A stretch of DNA of 16,538 nucleotides from a virus. Lineage: Duplodnaviria > Heunggongvirae > Uroviricota > Caudoviricetes. The position numbers and the translations under genes are program-made. Each line of letters starts with the position of its first letter. The stretch's first letter is position 1. This document shows, one piece after another, positions 1-16,538 of this stretch. The notes under the pieces were generated by a model, which had not been told where the DNA came from, searched no databases, and worked only from the letters and a program-made list of their open reading frames with translations. Where the stretch lies: IMG/VR virus record IMGVR_UViG_2541047850_000009; one strand, written 5' to 3'.

Positions 1-1230
1 ATGAGCAGAGCACTTAACAAACTGAGCGATACACAGCTGAGGAAAATCAACGGCACACCCGCCCAAAAAACAGCCTTTCTTAATGACGGTGGAAACCTGA
101 GCGTCAGGCATTCAACCAGTGGCCTTTTAACCTGGTATTTCACTTACAGGGCCGGAACGGGAAGGGGGGCACCACCGGAACGCATTAAGCTGGGAAATTA
201 TCCTGATCTGAGCCTGAAATCAGCCAGGGAAAAAGCCGCCCAGTGTCGCGCATGGCTGGCAGAGGGGAAAAATCCACGTCATGAGCTTAATTACACCGTA
301 CAGGAAGCGTTAAAGCCGGTAACGGTTGGTGATGCGCTCACCTACTGGCTTGAGTCGTACGCAAAGGAAAACCGTGTGGATTATGACCCACTGAAAAAGC
401 GGCTAAATAATCACGTAATACAGCACATTGGCCCTATGCCGCTGGATAAATGCGAGCTACGGCACTGGCTGGCCTGTTTTGATCGGGTGGCAAAGCAAGC
501 CCCTGTTTCCGCCGGGTTCCTGCTACAGACATGCAAGCAGGCGCTTAAGTTCTGCCGGAAGCGGCGCTATGCAATCAGCAACGTTCTTGATGATATGAGT
601 GTGGCGGACGTTGGGAAAAAACCGGATATAAGCGAGCGTGTCTTAAGCAACAAAGAACTTGGCGAATTATTGCAGGCACTGGACAAAAAAATATTCTCCC
701 CCTACTACATCGCGCTAATCCGCCTCCTGATTGTGTTCGGATGCCGGACGGTCGAACTTAGGTTATCGGAGATCGGCGAGTGGGATTTTACCGAAATGCT
801 CTGGACTGTTCCGAAGGAGCACAGCAAAACGAAGGTAGCCATATTCCGGCCCATACCGGAAGCAATACTGCCGTTCGTCACGCAGCTGGTGGAGCAGAAC
901 AAGCACACGGGCTTATTGCTGGGGGAAGTGAAACAGGAAACAAGCGTGTCGCAGTACGGCAGATTAGCGCACAGGAGGCTAAATCACCCTCACTGGTCAC
1001 TACATGACATCCGGCGCACCTTTACAACGATGCTGAACGATTTAGGCGTGGATCCTCACGTCGTGGAGCAGCTTACAGGCCACCAGATGCCAGGAATGCA
1101 GCGAGTTTATAATCATTCCCGTTATCTGGATGCTAAACGCAATGCGCTGGATATGTGGATGGAGCGGTTAGGGATACTGGCGGGAACACATGAAAACGTA
1201 ACCGCACTACCAGTAGCCAGAAGAAAATAA
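1..1230 (+). CDS. int: Tyrosine-type site-specific integrase (P4 / CP4-57-like)
   Basis: 409-aa ORF. C-terminal catalytic region carries the conserved tyrosine-recombinase pattern (HDIRRTF, LTGHQ, terminal VYNHSRY with the catalytic Tyr). N-terminal domain is typical of P4-type integrases. Confidence 0.9.
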   Translation: MSRALNKLSDTQLRKINGTPAQKTAFLNDGGNLSVRHSTSGLLTWYFTYRAGTGRGAPPERIKLGNYPDLSLKSAREKAAQCRAWLAEGKNPRHELNYTVQEALKPVTVGDALTYWLESYAKENRVDYDPLKKRLNNHVIQHIGPMPLDKCELRHWLACFDRVAKQAPVSAGFLLQTCKQALKFCRKRRYAISNVLDDMSVADVGKKPDISERVLSNKELGELLQALDKKIFSPYYIALIRLLIVFGCRTVELRLSEIGEWDFTEMLWTVPKEHSKTKVAIFRPIPEAILPFVTQLVEQNKHTGLLLGEVKQETSVSQYGRLAHRRLNHPHWSLHDIRRTFTTMLNDLGVDPHVVEQLTGHQMPGMQRVYNHSRYLDAKRNALDMWMERLGILAGTHENVTALPVARRK

Positions 1231-1593: not shown

Positions 1594-1782
1594 GTGTTAA
1601 GCACTGATCGGTTTATACGTGAAAAAGAATGCAAAAAACTAACCGGCCTTAGCCGTACGTGTCGCTACCGCCTGGAAAAGGCCGGACAATTCCCATCACG
1701 TCGTAAACTTGGCGGTCGTTCCGTTGGCTGGTCTTTATCCGAGGTTCTGGCCTGGAAGGATAGCTGCAAGGCAGTTCATTAA
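1594..1782 (+). CDS. alpA: AlpA/Vis-family winged-helix transcriptional regulator (excisionase-like)
   Basis: 62-aa ORF with GTG start 5 nt after AAAGGGGG. The motif LTGLSRTCRYRLEKAGQFP...KLGGRSVGW matches the AlpA-family pattern (GLSRSTIYR...G.FP.P.KLG.R.V.W). Confidence 0.85.
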   Translation: MLSTDRFIREKECKKLTGLSRTCRYRLEKAGQFPSRRKLGGRSVGWSLSEVLAWKDSCKAVH

Positions 1783-2708: not shown

Positions 2709-2906
2709 ATGGTTGCCGTAAATCATATACCACACCTTGTACACACACAAACGGCCTTTGTGTGGCGTTTTCTGGCACTGAGTGCCGGAGAATCTCAAAT
2801 CATCCACGTAACCGCCTGGACGGAACGCGAAGCGCGTAGCCGTTGCCCGTCCGGTTGTGTTGCTGTATTCGCCGCCCGTATTCGTCAGGGGTCACATCAT
2901 GCGTAA
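2709..2906 (+). CDS. Small conserved protein (66 aa), paralog of the C-terminus of the next gene; possibly Ash/Icd-like (family assignment from memory, unverified)
   Basis: ATG with AGGAG RBS at a 5-nt spacer. Shares FVWRF...VTA.TEREAR...ARIRQG..HA with 2899..3363. Stop overlaps the next start (ATGCGTAA). Confidence 0.6.
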   Translation: MVAVNHIPHLVHTQTAFVWRFLALSAGESQIIHVTAWTEREARSRCPSGCVAVFAARIRQGSHHA

Positions 2907-3363
2907 AAACCGCTTGCAAAAAATTATCACGGGGCTGTATGCTTCCCCCGTCGCCCACATGGCGACCGGGTTTGACAGCCTGAATACATCTGGCGGACAG
3001 CCGCCCACATCCGATAAGCGGTTTTTTTGTGTCCGTAAACCTACCCATACCCGCATTATGGCGGGGCGTAACGGGGGAGCCTTTGTGCTCGCTGGTTTCC
3101 AGATGACCAGTCTGTCAACCCTGTTACGTCTCGCCACCATGTTTGACAGCGTAGTAGCGAGACTCCTTAAAATTCATCTGGGAGCCTTTCACATGGCTGT
3201 ATCCGCACGCCCTTACTTTGTCTGGCGCTTTATGCAGTGCCTGACAGACAGCATTGCAATATTCACCGTTACCGCTGCCACTGAGCGCGAAGCACGCGCA
3301 CAGCTGCCGCACGCACATCTTATTTTTGTCGCCCGTATTCGTCAGGGGGTGTGCCATGCCTGA
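2899..3363 (+). CDS. Hypothetical protein (154 aa) whose C-terminal 50 aa is paralogous to the 2709..2906 product
   Basis: Translationally coupled start. C-terminus RPYFVWRF...TEREAR...ARIRQGVCHA. The same 19-nt DNA string cgcccgtattcgtcagggg occurs at 2873..2891 and 3330..3348. Confidence 0.6.
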   Translation: MRKNRLQKIITGLYASPVAHMATGFDSLNTSGGQPPTSDKRFFCVRKPTHTRIMAGRNGGAFVLAGFQMTSLSTLLRLATMFDSVVARLLKIHLGAFHMAVSARPYFVWRFMQCLTDSIAIFTVTAATEREARAQLPHAHLIFVARIRQGVCHA

Positions 3364-3682: not shown

Positions 3683-3982
3683 ATGAGAACATATTTATCT
3701 GGCTTGACTGCCAGCGGTTATGCACACCCCCAAATTATCCCCGGCGCTATTTATCTGGATAAGAACGGTAACAGAGTAACGGTAAAAGAACTGATGTTTG
3801 ACCGAGTGTATTTTATCCGTGATGGCTATTCATTTCTTAGTTCGCTGAACGTGGAGATCTTTATTAGCAGATTCAGGCGGGAAATCCCGCTTTCCAGAAA
3901 TAACCATGTGTCATGTATGGATGTTGATAAAAAACTACAGGAACTAAAAAACATGATTGCCGCGTGGAGAGAGCAGAAATGA
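3683..3982 (+). CDS. Hypothetical protein (99 aa), AT-rich gene
   Basis: ATG 6 nt after the previous stop. Its stop overlaps the primase start (ATGA). No family recognised. Confidence 0.5.
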   Translation: MRTYLSGLTASGYAHPQIIPGAIYLDKNGNRVTVKELMFDRVYFIRDGYSFLSSLNVEIFISRFRREIPLSRNNHVSCMDVDKKLQELKNMIAAWREQK

Positions 3983-6102
3983 AAAAAGCGCCAAATTTAA
4001 AACACCAGCCACGTGACAAAATGACGGAAGTCATCATTTTTGCGGGTAGTGATGCGTGGGCACATGCGAAGCAGTGGCAGGAACAGGACGGGCGACTGGC
4101 TGGCGACAGCGTGCCTCCTGTCTGGCTTGGAGAGCAACAACTTGCCGAACTGGATAAGCTGCAAATTGTGCCGGAAGGCCGAAAATCAGTACGCATATTC
4201 AGGGCCGGACATCTTGAGCCAGTAATGATCAAGGCGATTGGTCAGAAGCTGGCGGCGGCAGGCGTACAGGATGCAAATTTTTACCCTGATGGAATGCACG
4301 GTCAGGAGGTGGAGAACTGGCGCGAATATCTGGCCCGTGAGCGGCAGAATCTTTCTGATGGTCTGGTTATTGAGTTTCCGGTAAAGAAAAAAGATACCGG
4401 AAGCCATAGCGATGACGAATTAAAGCCACGCGTTGAAAGTCGCGCCGATGGTGTTTTCTGGGTAACGCCCAAAGTGGATAAGCAGTCAGGCGAAATTATC
4501 CGGCCTGAGACGTGGTTATGTTCTCCGCTTGAACTACTGGGAACGGGGACGATCGGTAAAGAGCATTACCGCGTGATGCGCTGGAAAAAAACCGCAAACC
4601 ATGAAGTCATCACAATGGCGATCCCGTGTGGTGGTATCGGCGACCGTGACGGCTGGCGGTTACTTAAAGATCACGGGCTGAACGTGACAACCAACGGCAA
4701 ATACAGGGCAATCCTGGCGGACTGGATGCAGTTAAGCGGAAGCCATGAGGAATGGCAGTTAAGCACAACAACGGGCTGGCATTTTGGCGCGTACATCATG
4801 CCGGACGGTTCGATCATTGGTGAATCTGAAAAACCGATCCTGTTTACCGGAAAAAGCGCCGCGATTAACGGTTATTCCGTGGCGGGCACGGCGGATGGCT
4901 GGCGCGACAGCGTGGCGCGGCTGGCTGGCGGTAATGCCTCAATGATGCTGGGTGTGGCAACGTCACTGGCAGCGCCTTTAATTGGCCTTGTGGGTGCTGA
5001 CGGCTTCGGGGTGCATCTTTTCGAACAGTCATCGGCAGGTAAGACCACCACGCAGAACATCGCATCAAGTTTATGGGGAGAGCCGGACGCGCAGCGGCTG
5101 ACCTGGTACGGCACGGCGTTAGGTATTGCCAATGAGGCCGAGGCCCATAATGACGGGCTTTTACCACTGGATGAGATAGGCCAGGCCGGAAATGCGCGGG
5201 AAGTGTCAACGTCTGCTTATACGCTGTTTAACGGTTCAGGGAAATTGCAGGGGGCGAAGGATGGCGGCAACAGGGAGATCAAACACTGGCGAACGGTGGC
5301 AATCAGCACCGGAGAAATGGACGTTGAGACATTCCTCAAAAGTGAGGGGATAAAAGTTAAGGCGGGGCAGCTTGTCCGACTGCTTAACGTTCCGATGGAA
5401 AAAGCCACGAAATTTCACGAATACAGCAACGGTAAGGAACATGCTGACGCGTTAAAGGATGCCTGGACAGCAAATCACGGGGCGGCGGGTCGTGAGTGGG
5501 TTAAATGGCTGGCAGGCCACCAGCAGGAGGCAAAGGATACGGTAAGGGAATGCCGCGAACGGTGGCGCAACCTGATACCGGAGAGCTACGGCGAGCAGGT
5601 CCACCGCGTGGGTGAACGTTTCGCCATACTGGAGGCCGCGCTTGTGCTTTCCGGTCATGTAACTGGCTGGGTCGTGCAGGAATGCCGCGACGCGATACAG
5701 CATAACTTTAATGCCTGGGTGAAGGAGTTCGGCACGGGTAACAGGGAATTTAAACAGATGGTTGAACAGGCTGAGGCGTTTTTGTCGTCGTTTGGGTTTA
5801 GCCGCTACCTTCCGTACCCCAATACAGATGAGCGTGATTTACCGATTAAAGAGCTTGCCGGATACAGAAAAGGGAGCATTCGCAACGAAGATGACGAGAT
5901 GCGCTATTACACGTTCCCGCACGTGTTTGAGAGTGAGATAGCGAAGGGATTTAATCCGGCGCATTTTGCGCGTGCCCTGGATGCTGCCGGAATGCTGGAG
6001 AAGGGAAGCGATCGCCGATACAAAAAAAAGGCGCTGGGCAAGATTGGGGGTAAGCAGCATGTTTTTTACGTGCTGATGTTCCAGCCTGATGATGAAGATT
6101 AA
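3979..6102 (+). CDS. Primase-helicase type replication protein (DUF927 / D5-like NTPase, P4 alpha-like)
   Basis: 707-aa ORF. P-loop-like FEQSSAGKTT and Walker-B-like LLPLDEIG in the central region. Sits immediately upstream of an iteron array. Domain family assigned from memory of typical satellite annotations. Confidence 0.75.
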   Translation: MKKAPNLKHQPRDKMTEVIIFAGSDAWAHAKQWQEQDGRLAGDSVPPVWLGEQQLAELDKLQIVPEGRKSVRIFRAGHLEPVMIKAIGQKLAAAGVQDANFYPDGMHGQEVENWREYLARERQNLSDGLVIEFPVKKKDTGSHSDDELKPRVESRADGVFWVTPKVDKQSGEIIRPETWLCSPLELLGTGTIGKEHYRVMRWKKTANHEVITMAIPCGGIGDRDGWRLLKDHGLNVTTNGKYRAILADWMQLSGSHEEWQLSTTTGWHFGAYIMPDGSIIGESEKPILFTGKSAAINGYSVAGTADGWRDSVARLAGGNASMMLGVATSLAAPLIGLVGADGFGVHLFEQSSAGKTTTQNIASSLWGEPDAQRLTWYGTALGIANEAEAHNDGLLPLDEIGQAGNAREVSTSAYTLFNGSGKLQGAKDGGNREIKHWRTVAISTGEMDVETFLKSEGIKVKAGQLVRLLNVPMEKATKFHEYSNGKEHADALKDAWTANHGAAGREWVKWLAGHQQEAKDTVRECRERWRNLIPESYGEQVHRVGERFAILEAALVLSGHVTGWVVQECRDAIQHNFNAWVKEFGTGNREFKQMVEQAEAFLSSFGFSRYLPYPNTDERDLPIKELAGYRKGSIRNEDDEMRYYTFPHVFESEIAKGFNPAHFARALDAAGMLEKGSDRRYKKKALGKIGGKQHVFYVLMFQPDDED

Positions 6103-6124: not shown

Positions 6125-6463
6125 TGCGGGTTATGCGGGTTATCCTGTGTATAAGTGTATTAAGTGCATGAATATAAAGGAAACCAATAACCCGCACGTA
6201 ACCCGCAAAAGGGCATTTATAACCCGCAAAAGCACGATTATAACCCGCTGGCGAATAACTGAAGTAACACCGGACAGTCATGCGTAACCCGCAGAAAAAA
6301 ACCGTTTGCGGGTTATTTTGAGCGTTTTGCGGGTTACGTGGTGAGCAAATAATAAACAGGGCGTTTTGCAAAATACTGATATAAAAGGATAAAAAATGGT
6401 TAGCACGCTAAGATAACCCAATAACCCGCATAACCCGCACATGTTTCTATATATATATAAATT
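6125..6463. repeat. Replication origin candidate: iteron array (9-bp TAACCCGCA in both orientations) plus AT-rich tract
   Basis: TGCGGGTTA at 6125, 6134, 6307, 6328. TAACCCGCA at 6188, 6199, 6220, 6285, 6422, 6431, with degenerate copies at 6241 and 6414. AT-rich tttctatatatatataaatt at 6443..6463. Confidence 0.7.
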
Positions 6464-6473
6464 GAGGTGGCAA

Positions 6474-6725
6474 ATGACCAGAACACGCAGAGACAGAACA
6501 GAGCCAAAATATAAAGCGTTAGACATGACTGAGCACACCTTAAAGGTGGCAATCAGAACGATAGACCGCCACACGCGGGAAGGATACGCGAAGGAACATC
6601 CCGACCTGATAAGCGCATTCATGACCACGACGGCGGCAAACTTTGCCACGCTGACAGAGCGGGAGATTGCCGAAGCGGAACAGGTAACAACCATCAACGT
6701 TAAAACCGGAGAGCAGACAGCATGA
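6474..6725 (+). CDS. Hypothetical basic small protein (83 aa)
   Basis: ATG after GAGGTG. Stop overlaps the ssb start (ATGA). Lies between the origin and ssb. No family recognised. Confidence 0.5.
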   Translation: MTRTRRDRTEPKYKALDMTEHTLKVAIRTIDRHTREGYAKEHPDLISAFMTTTAANFATLTEREIAEAEQVTTINVKTGEQTA

Positions 6726-7132
6726 CAGCACAGATAGCGGCTTACGGGCGGCTGGTGGACGACCCGCAGGTAAAACAGACCAGCAAGGGCACACCGATGA
6801 CGCTGGCGCGTATGGCGGTATCTTTGCCATGCAGCCAGGCACAGGACGGACAGGCGACGTTATGGTTATCGGTCATCGCATTTGGCAAACAGGCCGACCA
6901 ACTGGCAGGACATGAGAAAGGCAACGTAATCAGCGTATCCGGCGTGATGCAGATAAGCCAGTGGACCGGACAGAACGGGGAGACGCGTCAGGGTTATCAG
7001 GTCATTGCAGACAGCGTAATCAGTGCCCGTGCGGCACGTCCTGGCGGGAACAGACGCAAAACCACAGGCACACAGGGTAATCAGCCACCAGCGGGAGACG
7101 ATGACCCCTACGGTGATGATATTCCGTTCTGA
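6722..7132 (+). CDS. ssb: Single-stranded DNA-binding protein
   Basis: 136-aa ORF. OB-fold-like N-terminal region, glycine/glutamine-rich linker, and the diagnostic acidic tail DDDPYGDDIPF. Confidence 0.85.
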   Translation: MTAQIAAYGRLVDDPQVKQTSKGTPMTLARMAVSLPCSQAQDGQATLWLSVIAFGKQADQLAGHEKGNVISVSGVMQISQWTGQNGETRQGYQVIADSVISARAARPGGNRRKTTGTQGNQPPAGDDDPYGDDIPF

Positions 7133-7144
7133 GGGGTGGGGACG

Positions 7145-7417
7145 ATGGTACATGACCGCATAGCGGAAGAACTGGAGGCGAAAGGCTTTTACCGGAGAGC
7201 GTCGGCGCGATGGGGTGAAGTCATGCAACTGGTGGAGACAGACAAGGAACGGCATCACATCACGATGCGACGGCTGGAATGTTCCAGGAAGGCACAGAGG
7301 CCACCGGAGCCGCCGGATAATTACGGAGACCTGAAAAAGGCGGTCGATCGCACTTATGCCGAAATGGGTATGGATGGTGCTGGTGATGAAATATGGCGAA
7401 ATTACCAGGACAGATAA
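7145..7417 (+). CDS. PerC-family-like transcriptional regulator
   Basis: 90-aa ORF from the ATG at 7145 (the track start at 7136 is GTG). N-terminal motif DRIAEELEAKGFYRRASARWGEV resembles the PerC/Pch signature (AE.LE..G.WRRAA.RW) as I recall it. Confidence 0.5.
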   Translation: MVHDRIAEELEAKGFYRRASARWGEVMQLVETDKERHHITMRRLECSRKAQRPPEPPDNYGDLKKAVDRTYAEMGMDGAGDEIWRNYQDR

Positions 7418-7423
7418 TCACAC

Positions 7424-7446
7424 AGCCGGAGCAATCCGGCTTTTTG
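7424..7446 (+). terminator. Rho-independent terminator after the PerC-like gene
   Basis: Stem GCCGGA / TCCGGC with GCAA tetraloop, followed by TTTTT. Confidence 0.6.
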
Positions 7447-7464
7447 TCATGTTTTGTAAATTAT

Positions 7465-7494
7465 TTGTTCGTGGTTGTTCCACGTTGTTCGCTG
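7465..7494 (+). repeat. Three head-to-tail 10-bp repeats TTGTTCgtgg TTGTTCcacg TTGTTCgctg; candidate operator array about 210 bp upstream of the capsid gene
   Basis: Exact 10-bp periodicity. Matches the reverse complement of 1299..1323 at 23 of 25 positions and 14939..14953 at 15 of 15. Confidence 0.5.
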
Positions 7495-7566
7495 ACCGGA
7501 TCGGCATATTTTACCCGAACTGAATCATGATTATTCTCGCCAGTGGTGCCAGGACGCTGGGGCCAC

Positions 7567-7614
7567 TTTCCCGCCTGTTAATGTGCTCGCCAATATTCAT
7601 TACCAGGCGGGAAA
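7567..7614 (+). promoter_or_regulatory. 11-bp inverted repeat TTTCCCGCCTG ... CAGGCGGGAAA (26-nt spacer) in the capsid-operon leader
   Basis: Read directly from the sequence. Could be an RNA stem-loop or a dyad protein-binding site. Confidence 0.3.
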
Positions 7615-7704
7615 ATGATCGGTGCGATTGCTGATTTCCTTATGAAAAACGGTTGAGTGTTTGCCGCGTCCTGGAGTTCCTTACTTAACTTCAGGACTTT
7701 TTTT

Positions 7705-8862
7705 ATGCCGAGAATAATCGAATTACGCCAGCAGAAAACCGCCATTAAAAATCAGATGCGCGACATGCTGGAGAACGCGGAAAAAGAAAACCGCAGCCTT
7801 AACGATGCTGAGGGCGCAAAATTTGACGAATTACGCGCTAAAGCTGAATCCCTCGATAAAGACATTTCCCGCCTTGAAGCCATTGCAGACGAAGAGCGCA
7901 GTAAACCAGGCAAAAACAGCCAGACCACTGACCCCGCAGAACTACGCAACTACATTCTGACAGGTGAAACCCGCGCATTAAGTACAGGCGTTCCCGCTGA
8001 TGGTGGTTATACCGTTATCCCCGAACTGAACACCGAAATCATGCGAATGCTGGCGGATGAGTCCACCATGCGCCGCATCTGTACCGTGAAGAAAATCAGC
8101 AGCAACGAGTTTAAGCAGCTTGTTTCCGCTGGCGGTGCGACCGTTAACCACGGTGAAGAGGGTAAGACACGCGAACAGACCAGCACCCCGCAGATTAACG
8201 AGGTGAGCATTAAGCTGTATCCGGTCTATGCGTACCCGCGCACCACACAGGAAATCGTGGATTTTTCCGATGTGGACATCCTTTCATGGCTGACGGGTGA
8301 GATTGGCGACACCTTCACGGAAACCGAAGAAAGCGATCTGGTTGTGGGCGACGGTGACAAAAAAGCAAAAGGTTTTTTATCCGTACCCCGTGCAGAGAAG
8401 AACGACAAAGAGCGTGATTTTGGTACGTTGCAGGTAATTAAACCTTCCGAATCTCTGGCGTGGACATCTGCGGACCCGCTGATCGACCTGAAATTTGCAT
8501 TACGTAAAAAATACCGCAAAAACGCGGTCTGGGTGGTTAACTCCACGACGGCGGCAAAACTTCAGAAGGTGAAGAACGCGAACGGTGATTACATCTGGCG
8601 CGACCGTTTACAGGCGGGTGATCCTGATACGTTACTGGGCCTTCCGGTCGAATATCTGGAGTTTATGCCGGATAACGTTATTGCCCTGGGTGACTTCAAA
8701 CGCGGTTACTACATTGTTGATCACGAAACAGGTGTTCGCACCAGACCGGACAACCTCACAGAGCCGGGCTTCATCAAAATTTTCACGCAGAAATATTTAG
8801 GCGGTGGCGTGGTGGATTCGAACGCGATCAAGATTCTGGAACTGCCACAGGACGACGATTAA
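7705..8862 (+). CDS. Major capsid protein, HK97 fold, with N-terminal scaffold-like (delta) coiled-coil domain
   Basis: 385-aa product. N-terminal 90 aa is coiled-coil-like and charged (IIELRQQKTAIKNQMRDMLENAEK...). Followed by a prohead protease gene. Start chosen at the ATG at 7705 rather than the upstream track start. Confidence 0.88.
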   Translation: MPRIIELRQQKTAIKNQMRDMLENAEKENRSLNDAEGAKFDELRAKAESLDKDISRLEAIADEERSKPGKNSQTTDPAELRNYILTGETRALSTGVPADGGYTVIPELNTEIMRMLADESTMRRICTVKKISSNEFKQLVSAGGATVNHGEEGKTREQTSTPQINEVSIKLYPVYAYPRTTQEIVDFSDVDILSWLTGEIGDTFTETEESDLVVGDGDKKAKGFLSVPRAEKNDKERDFGTLQVIKPSESLAWTSADPLIDLKFALRKKYRKNAVWVVNSTTAAKLQKVKNANGDYIWRDRLQAGDPDTLLGLPVEYLEFMPDNVIALGDFKRGYYIVDHETGVRTRPDNLTEPGFIKIFTQKYLGGGVVDSNAIKILELPQDDD

Positions 8863-8873
8863 CAGCATACAGA

Positions 8874-8901
8874 AGGGGCTTAAAAGCCCCTTTAGTGTTT
8901 T
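8874..8901 (+). terminator. Stem-loop after the capsid gene (partial terminator or attenuator, or stabilising hairpin)
   Basis: Stem AGGGGCT / AGCCCCT with TAAA loop, followed by ttagtgtttt. Confidence 0.4.
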
Positions 8902-11755: not shown

Positions 11756-11921
11756 GCGGAAACAAAACCGCCTTATCCGTGGACTTATAAGGCAGCGTGA
11801 CGCATGGAAGACACAGGAAACAGGGCATAAAGATAAAGCGTCAGGACGCGCAGAACGCATCACAGCGAAGCGATTAACCGACCGTGACCGCGAGGTTATG
11901 GAATGTTTCCGCAATCGCTGA
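11748..11921 (+). CDS. Possible small basic protein (57 aa, MNERKQNRLIRGLIRQRDAWK...)
   Basis: Only the part of track ORF 11517..11921 that does not overlap HNH. No convincing RBS. May instead be non-coding DNA holding the packaging site. Confidence 0.22.
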   Translation: MNERKQNRLIRGLIRQRDAWKTQETGHKDKASGRAERITAKRLTDRDREVMECFRNR

Positions 11922-11924
11922 TGA

Positions 11925-12044
11925 GGCTGTATGACGGGGTGGGGGGCGTTTTCAGGACAAACCCGACCCCGCCGGGCACCGACCGCCTCCTCAAATTTTT
12001 ATGCACGGGAATTTTTTGAAAAATAATCTGGCGAAAAAATAAGC
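11925..12044. other. Candidate cos / packaging-initiation region upstream of terS
   Basis: G-rich (gacggggtggggggcg) then C-rich (cccgaccccgccgggcaccgaccgcctcc) segment, then an AT-rich tract. Lies between HNH and terS, where HNH-dependent cos sites usually sit. Confidence 0.3.
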
Positions 12045-14615: not shown

Positions 14616-14938
14616 GACCATGAAACTACGGAAACTACCCGTAGTTTGGGTAGTAAGAGTAACACCCAGATTTTGGGGCTTACTCGTGATACCCAAATTT
14701 GGGGTATCAGTGGCAACCATAACGACTTTCGTTACGGTTGATGCTTTTACCCCATTGGGGGAAAGGTATTACGATAATCATAACACCTACCGAACAGGTA
14801 AAGCCCACCAGCCTGATTAACGTTTAACCGGAAAAAAATTCCGGTAGGTGGGGATCCCCATATCGACATTAACGCCCCTCATGAATTGGTGCGCTTCCCC
14901 CTGGAAAGATGATCCGCCTGTATATTTCTTGTGTCTAT

Positions 14939-14958
14939 TTGTTCCACGTTGTTTCATA
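14939..14958 (+). repeat. Third copy of the TTGTTC repeat motif (TTGTTCCACG TTGTTTCATA), about 120 bp from the phoQ stop
   Basis: 15 of 15 identity with 7475..7489. Confidence 0.45.
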
Positions 14959-15077: not shown

Positions 15078-16538
15078 TTATTCATCTTTCGGCGCAGAAT
15101 GCTGGCGACCAAAAATCACTTCCATCCGCGCACCGCCCAGCATGCTCTCTCCGGCGACGATTTTACCCTCATATTGCTCGGTGATTTCGCGGGCTACCGC
15201 CAGCCCCACACCTTGCCCAGGGCGTAAAGTATCAACCCGTTGACCACGGTCGAAAATGACCTCTCGCTTGCTTAATGGAATACCGGGGCCATCATCCTCG
15301 ACCACAATATAGAGATGCTCGTCGGTTTGCCTTGCAGAAATTTCGACAAACTCGAGGCAATATTTACAGGCGTTATCCAGCACGTTGCCCATCACTTCGA
15401 CAAAATCATTCTGCTCACCAACAAAGCTGATTTCTGGCGAGATATCGAGAGAGATATTGACCCCTTTGCGTTGATACACTTTGTTCAGCGCCGAGGTGAG
15501 ATTGTCCAACAGTGGCGCGACCGGATGCAGCTCGCGGCTAAGCAATGTCCCGCCGCGCATACTGGCACGATGCAGGTAGTAGCCAATTTGCTGTGAAATG
15601 CGGCTGATTTGCTCCAGCATTACCGGCTCAGCATCACTGACGCTCATCTTCTCACTACGCAGAGAACGCAGCGTACTTTGCAGCACCGCCAGTGGCGTTT
15701 TCAGACTATGGGTCAGGTCGGTGAGCGTTGTACGATATTTGTCGTAACGTTCGCGTTCACTTTTTAACAGTCGGTTCAGGTTTCGTACCAGACTGGTCAG
15801 TTCTCGCGTTGTGGCTGGATTGAGCAATTCACGGTTATGTTCTTCCAGTTCGCGGACTTCTTTTGCCAGGGCTTCGATGGGGCGTAAACTCCACCAGGCG
15901 GCGACCCACAGCAGCGGGATCACTAACAGCAGATTGGCTGAGAGCACATAGATAAACCAGCTCCAGACCATATAGGAACTTTTTAGCTCCACCGGAATGG
16001 TATCCACCACCACAATGGTTAACTTTGGCATCCGCGATGTTGCCGGGTAGACGTTTACCGCCACCGAGTGGGTCATCTCCGCGTCGTCATCATCTTCCCG
16101 CACTTCCTGCAACTGTTGCTGTATCGAATGATCTCCACTCAGCAAGAGGCTGGTATCGTTAACATCCGCTTCAATTTCATGAAAACCATTCGATTTCAGC
16201 CAGTCAGGCTGGATCATCTTCATCAGCCAGGGCACGTCACGTTGCGCCCATAAAAGCTGCCCGTTCTCATCATAAATTAGTGTCATCGTGGGGCTTTGCT
16301 TGTCGATATTTTCGGGTAACTCGACATGCAACTTATTGTTTTCCCACTTCGCAAGGGTATAGAACAGATTGCTCTCGCCACGTAACAGCCGAAACGTGGT
16401 TTTATCGAAACTGACGCTATAACCGATCAGCGCAACCATTCCGTAGGCAAGCGAAAGCACCAATACTACTGCTGCCGTTGCTAACAGAAAACGTACCCGC
16501 AGCGAGAGCGGGAAAAAAAGATGCAGTAATTTTTTCAT
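15078..16538 (-). CDS. phoQ: Sensor histidine kinase PhoQ of the PhoP/PhoQ two-component system
   Basis: 486-aa product recognised as PhoQ: two transmembrane segments, a periplasmic sensor with the acidic patch [10 protein letters not shown], the H-box [12 protein letters not shown], and an ATPase domain with DDGPGIP and GQGVGL. Complete ORF with its start at the window end. Confidence 0.96.

Follow-up and report, generated by a model that had tools for sequence, protein, structure and literature searches.

The window analysed here, a 16,538-nt stretch of DNA from IMG/VR virus record IMGVR_UViG_2541047850_000009, carries an island of ~15 kb next to phoQ (Table 1). It combines int, alpA and a primase gene with genes for capsid, protease, portal, connectors, HNH endonuclease, TerS and TerL, and has no tail or lysis genes. 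Judged by this gene content and by its site, the island is a capsid-forming PICI (cf-PICI) of the EcCIEDL933/O-island 51 type. EcCIEDL933, which is O-island 51, CP-933C or Sp7 of Escherichia coli O157:H7, likewise adjoins phoQ, and its published organisation is the same as that of the window (bioRxiv 2022.09.08.507074). The order int-alpA-DUF927 primase-ssb-perC-capsid...terL-phoQ is common to the window and EDL933. Two overlapping ORFs (2607-2906 and 2857-3363) match the transcriptional-repressor PHROGs 1743 and 6196 via a shared C-terminal motif, and their EDL933 counterpart carries the annotation Icd-like host cell division inhibitor. A 290-bp non-coding gap (11756-12044) separates the HNH gene from terS; in cos packaging systems that depend on HNH, this is where the cos site usually lies.

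The gene under study, perC, is read from an ATG to a TAA at 7415-7417 and encodes a protein of 90 amino acids (MVHDRIAEELEAKGFYRRASARWGEVMQLVETDKERHHITMRRLECSRKAQRPPEPPDNYGDLKKAVDRTYAEMGMDGAGDEIWRNYQDR). An in-frame GTG at 7136 is a possible alternative start; the homologues in our alignment all begin with MVHD. Directly 5' of perC, and in the same frame, lies ssb, and the ssb-perC pair recurs in EDL933, in CFT073 and in IMG/VR cf-PICI loci. A promoter scan of positions 6400-8000 found no sigma-70-like promoter on either strand, and from this and the spacing of only 12 nt between the ssb stop and the perC start, perC would seem to close the upstream operon as its last cistron and is probably co-transcribed with ssb. 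Six bases beyond the perC stop, a terminator scan picked out a hairpin with a stem of 7 bp, five of them G-C, and a loop of 4, followed at once by a T-run. The element folds with a dG of -13.2 kcal/mol (z -4.26), a stability that none of 200 shuffles reached, and as a G+C-rich hairpin with a T-run it has the predicted properties of a Rho-independent terminator. It is kept in 28 of the 32 distinct perC-leader configurations that we compared.

Table 1. Features of the island and of the perC region, in window coordinates
Feature	Position	Strand	Evidence or description
P4-type integrase with arm-DNA-binding domain	1-1230		Pfam
AlpA	1594-1782		Pfam
DUF4222 gene	between alpA and primase in list order		Pfam
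DUF927 primase	3964-6102		Pfam
ssb, 136 aa	6722-7132	+	Pfam SSB PF00436, E 6.4e-16
ssb-perC spacer, 12 nt	7133-7144	+	purine-rich Shine-Dalgarno-like run GGGGTGGGGACG
perC (pchE-type gene)	7145-7417	+	PF06069 full length; five predicted helices
Predicted intrinsic terminator of the perC cassette	7424-7446	+	hairpin AGCCGGAGCAATCCGGCT (7424-7441) + TTTTT
Capsid-leader start, outside the perC cassette	7453-7490	+	box TTTGTAAATTATTTGT + three TTGTTC repeats, 10-bp phase
11-bp hairpin + T7 abutting the capsid ATG, outside the perC cassette	7668-7704	+	dG -16.0 kcal/mol, z -3.9
HK97-type major capsid	7705-8862		Pfam
Prohead protease, portal, head completion protein, connector, HNH endonuclease	listed after capsid		Pfam
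TerS, TerL	to 14046		Pfam
phoQ	15078-16538	-	Pfam

The PerC protein and its relation to PchE

The preliminary description of this DNA had placed perC as the last gene before a strong terminator, a TTGTTC array and a long capsid leader, and had assigned its product to the PerC/Pch-like family from an N-terminal motif. The coordinates and fold statistics bear out the anatomy, and the family assignment proved correct in a profile search, in which the protein matched Pfam PF06069 (PerC transcriptional activator) at 146.6 bits, above the gathering score of 22.6 (E 2.7e-43). Residues 1-89 align to positions 1-89 of the 90-position profile, and the match thus takes in the entire protein, beyond an N-terminal motif. 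The protein also matched PHROG 994 (E 2.9e-46), and by these profile matches its membership of the PerC family is near certain. Homologues were found in Escherichia, Salmonella and Citrobacter. In an alignment of 17 of them, 17 columns are invariant, including an N-terminal core made up of G14, Y16-R17-R18-A19 and A21-R22-W23. The 90-aa cf-PICI protein has the traits of the family, namely a small size (~80-105 aa), the N-terminal core and carriage on an Enterobacteriaceae mobile element. The median dN/dS among ten alleles is 0.28, and perC is therefore under purifying selection.

An AlphaFold2 model of the protein is all-helical, with five helices and a pLDDT of 82.6, and the confidence exceeds 90 over the first 50 residues, which correspond to the conserved core. 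As modelled, the protein is without a helix-turn-helix or other recognisable DNA-binding fold. Searches of the PDB with the model (Foldseek) gave no fold match better than E 2.4, and a sequence search for a solved homologue returned nothing significant, so that a mechanism based on the fold cannot be claimed for PerC. The protein scored 19.1 bits against the model of the ANR (AraC negative regulator) family (NCBIfam NF033650), below the 32-bit cut-off for membership; the sub-threshold resemblance covers residues 7-52 (E 8.6e-4). ANR (Aar-type) proteins are small and helical like PerC and bind AraC-type activators or H-NS; for PerC, such binding is a candidate only. Annotation labels the PerC family, and related PHROGs too, as transcriptional activators. 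This label and the position of perC as the last gene ahead of the capsid operon favour the proposal, raised in the preliminary description, that PerC is the late activator of the island; made from the end of the early or replication transcript, it would switch on the capsid-packaging operon via the array or leader. The model without a DNA-binding fold speaks against this proposal.

The closest well-described relative of the window protein is PchE of EDL933 (EDL933_RS08690, WP_000233299.1), with 86.7% amino-acid and 91.6% nucleotide identity. Both proteins have 90 residues, of which 12 differ, and both genes have ssb upstream, a terminator and the capsid operon downstream, and a site next to phoQ. 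EDL933, unlike the window, has an extra 74-aa ORF and a second terminator copy between perC and the capsid leader. The gene in OI-51/Sp7, next to phoQ, was named PchE by Flockhart 2011 (PMC3378721). The high identity to the EDL933/Sakai PchE and the OI-51-type synteny by phoQ identify the window perC, at the level of sequence, as a pchE allele; in E. coli, pchE is the PerC homologue assigned to group 3. A 100% nucleotide match to it was found in E. coli AR_0013. Because 1,098 of 5,426 complete E. coli genomes carry pchE-like sequences, named 'PerC family transcriptional regulator' by PGAP, the gene is already known and annotated. A tblastn search of 50,697 phage records showed PerC to be almost absent from them, the one exception being an unannotated 1.6-kb record. 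In EDL933 and many O157 genomes, a frameshifted RefSeq 'trigger factor' pseudogene overlaps the 3' end of pchE and the terminator (L003 8242-8357, in our locus numbering); it looks like an annotation artefact.

The capsid leader and the TTGTTC arrays

The leader of the capsid gene (7447-7704) is 258 nt long, and a 264-nt segment that runs from 7447 to just inside the capsid gene has significantly more structure than shuffled sequences (z -3.6); an Rfam scan of 7000-8000 gave chance-level matches only. The TTGTTC repeats at 7465, 7475 and 7485 keep an exact 10-bp phase and begin 19 nt beyond the T-run of the perC terminator. The box at 7453 is common to cf-PICIs without perC. In the form TTTGTAAAT(TATTTGT), which occupies 7453-7468 of the window, it is also found in loci L045-L053 and in about half of loci L063-L142. 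Even among cf-PICIs with capsids of only about 66-77% identity, the capsid leader opens with the TTTGTAAAT box; phased TGTT(T/C) repeats come next, to which a sister lineage usually adds a G+C hairpin and T-run ~35-45 nt further on. The region resembles a conserved promoter/operator in which a terminator lies close to the promoter. Since the leader has no sigma-70-like promoter, some activator would be needed for the capsid operon, and this point speaks for a late activator encoded nearby.

At the other end of the leader, the hairpin that abuts the capsid ATG holds the AGGA Shine-Dalgarno sequence of the capsid gene in its 3' arm, and could be a terminator requiring read-through, a translational block, or both. 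A further long hairpin lies in between, at 7567-7614 (TTCCCGCCTG...CAGGCGGGAA), and the PerC-less lineage has a different stem in a similar place (GTCCACCCGG...CCGGGTGGAC in L045-L050). A 9-bp G+C hairpin with a T-rich tail (8872-8893) is found between the end of the capsid gene and the protease gene (8902), where it might serve as an attenuator that sets the capsid:protease ratio. We also considered the capsid leader as a target of H-NS, an idea to which its composition (GC 0.42-0.50) gives no backing.

Further TTGTTC arrays, likewise in 10-bp phase, occur elsewhere in the island. One (1288-1325, - strand, 4-5 repeats) lies just downstream of int on the opposite strand, and another (14926-14954, + strand) lies near the right, attR-side end, ~125 bp from phoQ; in all, the array pattern was matched five times in the window against 0.15 times in shuffles. 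EDL933 has another array on the attL side, between roxA and int (L003 1018-1055, + strand), and the CFT073 PICI retains the array after int. The arrays are present in the PerC-bearing group of window, EDL933 and CFT073 and were not seen in the PerC-less lineage, where a search for the leader repeat elsewhere in the islands gave background matches only (16-19 of 28). Such a distribution is in favour of PerC as the protein that acts on the leader; the additional arrays at int and the att arms, which are typical of Int or Xis sites, tell against it. Because the arrays stand at both att arms and beside int, and because Int and AlpA are both encoded here, these two proteins are the likelier binders, and the pattern suggests that the arrays are integrase arm-type and/or AlpA (Xis-like) sites reused at the capsid control region. 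By Pfam, the island Int carries an arm-DNA-binding domain and AlpA is a Xis-like wHTH protein. For the latter we take a Xis/Vis-like role to be the safer analogy. A Pseudomonas-type AlpA antiterminator acting at the leader terminators was rejected: the island AlpA has 62 residues and is essentially the HTH domain alone. In the Pseudomonas protein the DNA-contact residues are 128-142, and an N-terminal segment forms a ring in the RNA exit channel (PMC9371919).

perC and the capsid leader assort independently

To compare perC and the leader across islands, we used IMG/VR loci found via a capsid protein at least 97% identical to that of the window, and every such locus with enough upstream sequence holds a PerC-family ORF. 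In over 40 cf-PICI loci of E. coli, identity to the window was ~92-100% for the leader but 56-100% for PerC, where the latter had not been deleted; this pattern is hard to reconcile with a late activator acting through the leader. The variants include an 82-aa CFT073-type allele, a 93-aa form, a C-terminally altered form (L010) and one in which the N-terminal core has been lost and the leader and capsid gene are intact (L024). Between the perC stop and the leader box, five spacings occur (35, 51, ~389, ~405 and 443 nt), and between the window and EDL933 perC has a dS of 0.21 and the adjacent non-coding leader differs by 3.6%. A variable perC, a near-constant leader and such unequal divergence point to mosaicism, not to co-evolution.

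Two reference islands show where the boundary of the exchanged segments may lie. The PICI of CFT073, which shares the site, int and alpA with the window, has ssb-perC, the same terminator hairpin and a second hairpin, and then an unrelated leader, which is without a TTGTTC array and precedes lambda-type capsid and decoration homologues; here a perC with its terminator coexists with a late leader that lacks the array through which it was supposed to act. In EDL933, the perC terminator is present twice, flanking the 74-aa ORF, and the box, array and leader come only after the second copy. Taken together, the two arrangements imply that the terminator belongs with perC and the array with the capsid module. 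The 74-aa ORF between perC and the leader of EDL933 (in the stretch L003 8274-8650, to be compared with 7418-7452 of the window, where the ORF is missing) is also present in many other islands. Similar small ORFs (motif ...HGF..H.LSGE......EQ.D.L...L) lie directly 5' of the leader in L051, L053, L063 and L064; they belong to no Pfam family, and some are in islands without perC.

In the sister lineage, whose capsids are ~70% identical to that of the window and which has int, alpA and terL where the sequence reaches, a search of 80 cf-PICI loci with an HMM built from the family found no PerC. Nor did Pfam identify a PerC among ten ORFs upstream of the leader in seven sister islands, L053 (capsid 66% identical to the window's) and EDL933. 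About half of the 80 PerC-less loci still keep the TTTGTAAAT box, the phased TGTT repeats and, usually, the hairpin with its T-run, a further argument against PerC as the late activator. The converse arrangement was met in a profile search of contigs with the PerC alignment, which confirmed at least two loci, in E. albertii and E. ruysiae. Their PerC homologues (58% and 47% identity) are encoded after a ProQ/FinO gene, and the islands have unrelated cargo downstream (autotransporter adhesin, hypothetical proteins) and no TTGTTC arrays, which again counts against the late-activator proposal. In E. albertii, this cargo is encoded on the opposite strand and is an AIDA/pertactin autotransporter. 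The second island group, in which perC follows ProQ/FinO and not ssb, comprises L001 (9462-9998), L002 (9462-10004) and E. coli H55 and H59-H63.

PerC is thus missing from loci that have the capsid operon and its control region (the 80 PerC-less loci, and L024, which has lost the core), and the protein and the putative cis site do not co-vary, CFT073, L001 and L002 having PerC without a downstream array. With perC alleles and leader assorting independently, a PerC-less sister lineage and an unrelated leader in CFT073, the suggestion that PerC is the late activator of the island found no support. Within the lineage of the window, the TTGTTC arrays are linked to PerC and to the types of int and alpA, and the comparison cannot fully separate them. 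Dedicated late activators of satellites and their helpers include the zinc-finger activators Delta of P4 and Ogr of P2 and the LtrC-type activators of SaPIs and phages. PerC shares with these the position of a small protein encoded just upstream of a satellite morphogenesis/packaging operon, but it has a single cysteine and so no zinc-finger cysteines, it does not always accompany the late operon, and no site co-varies with it.

Published functions of PerC-family proteins

Two further members of the family, PerC (BfpW), from the EAF plasmid of EPEC, and PchA/B/C, from lambdoid prophages of EHEC, activate LEE1/ler, the function to which the family owes its name; they share with the window protein the Pfam family, the ELEAKG-YRRAA-RW core and carriage on mobile elements. 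The window protein differs from the PchABC type, which has 104 residues, exists as near-identical copies in lambdoid prophages and is encoded after a phage lysis cassette (holin/Rz1): it is only ~43% identical to it, and an NCBIfam scan returned no PchABC-type (group-1 Pch) model. PchA activates LEE1 by displacing H-NS/StpA/Hha, and the activation vanishes once the silencers are deleted; the authors argue against the need for a strict upstream activating sequence (PMC4764244). PchE changes ler by <2-fold, a minimal effect when PchA, B and C each reach at least 4-fold (PMC5931665), in line with the account of Porter 2005 given in PMC11773190, by which the PchE group has little or no effect on LEE1/ler.

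Other host functions respond to PchE. Its over-expression strongly represses csgD, curli and biofilm, and deletion of pchE slightly raises curli (PMC6265319); PchE also increases flhDC and flagellar expression (PMC7369912). These host phenotypes come mostly from plasmid over-expression. The pchE transcript has a low steady level in uninduced cells and drops >6-fold after SOS/prophage induction (PMC6265319), the opposite of what a late activator would lead one to expect; the drop was seen in a strain in which Sp7 genes overall went down, where the island was perhaps simply not induced (PMC5931665).

That some E. coli PICIs carry PerC variants was noted by Fillol-Salom et al. (PMC6092414). One PerC-like PICI protein, EcCIMP1_025, represses LEE1 (PMC11773190). 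Its gene lies on a PICI with AlpA and primase, like that of the window, but the repression was seen in Citrobacter rodentium and EcCIMP1 is not capsid-forming; the protein is ~40% identical to those of EDL933 and CFT073, and its authors noted the same distant ANR resemblance (PMC11773190). In published cf-PICI work, including bioRxiv 2022.09.08.507074, we found no mention of perC, and the published PchE and cf-PICI work yielded no experiment on a role of perC in the PICI life cycle.

A host-directed accessory regulator as the favoured reading

We favour, with a probability of roughly 0.6, the reading that the window perC is a pchE allele which, together with its terminator, forms an exchangeable cassette and encodes an accessory trans regulator of host genes, not the switch of the capsid operon. 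Gene and terminator behave as a unit that recombines independently of the downstream sequence, in a variable slot between the replication and packaging genes of E. coli PICIs. PerC would be made in small amounts by the resident island, and its targets in trans would be host promoters, not the capsid operon of the island. By analogy with PchA, it may remodel H-NS/StpA/Hha repression complexes and would then not need to recognise a strict upstream activating sequence. Such remodelling fits a small protein made of helices only, for which the model shows no DNA-binding fold and which bears a sub-threshold likeness to ANR. The outcome for the host would be the published PchE effects, that is, repression of csgD and curli, higher flagellar expression and little change, if any, in LEE1/ler. 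The terminator would keep read-through of the perC block out of the capsid operon, which has its own conserved control region, more plausibly served by Int and/or AlpA or by a helper-phage factor. Of the two functions that the preliminary description had offered for PerC, action on host genes agrees with the PchE literature (PMC6265319, PMC7369912, PMC5931665), and the role of late activator is made unlikely.

Three observations sit less easily with a host-directed regulator. The position at the replication/packaging junction is kept in E. coli PICIs with different packaging modules, which would fit a role in the life cycle; the TTGTTC arrays track the PerC-bearing group, although this is confounded with int and alpA type; and the allele of the window departs from the PchE that has been studied at 12 of 90 residues, the host phenotypes of the latter being mostly those of over-expression.

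A doubtful alternative is that PerC helps the satellite indirectly, as a general anti-silencer or anti-regulator or as a tuner of helper or host regulators, with no dedicated site in the leader. The displacement of H-NS/StpA/Hha by PchA in the way described above (PMC4764244), the weak ANR-family resemblance over residues 7-52 and the abundance of PchE-type perC in E. coli (1,098/5,426 genomes) next to its near absence from phage records all accord with such a role. It is weakened by a capsid leader that is not markedly AT-rich and by the other cf-PICI lineages, which manage without PerC. A bolder form of the idea, distinctly doubtful in our estimate, would make PchE-type PerC proteins satellite-specific life-cycle factors, which at induction might lift nucleoid silencing from the island or redirect the regulators of host or helper, as might be suggested by their being common at the replication/packaging junction of PICIs with differing packaging modules and essentially absent from sequenced phages; the reported 'virulence' phenotypes would then be side effects.

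The late-activator idea is made unlikely by the comparative and published evidence set out in the preceding sections, for all the appeal of its position, its family label and its promoter-poor leader. That the perC ORF is a decaying or non-functional passenger remnant is highly improbable: truncated or fused copies exist (L024, L010 and the 82-aa CFT073-type allele), but most alleles keep the length of 90 aa, the 17 invariant columns, the dN/dS of 0.28 and the full-length Pfam match point to a maintained protein, and both over-expression and deletion phenotypes have been published for the orthologue PchE (PMC6265319).

Implications

As a gene, perC is of limited consequence, being a pchE allele that is already annotated, in a well-described type of island. 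The useful result is a negative one, namely that the adjacency of perC to the capsid operon is not to be taken as a regulatory link. The search for the late switch of cf-PICIs would accordingly turn away from PerC and towards better candidates, which are the TTTGTAAAT box with its phased repeats, the leader hairpins, Int, AlpA and helper factors.
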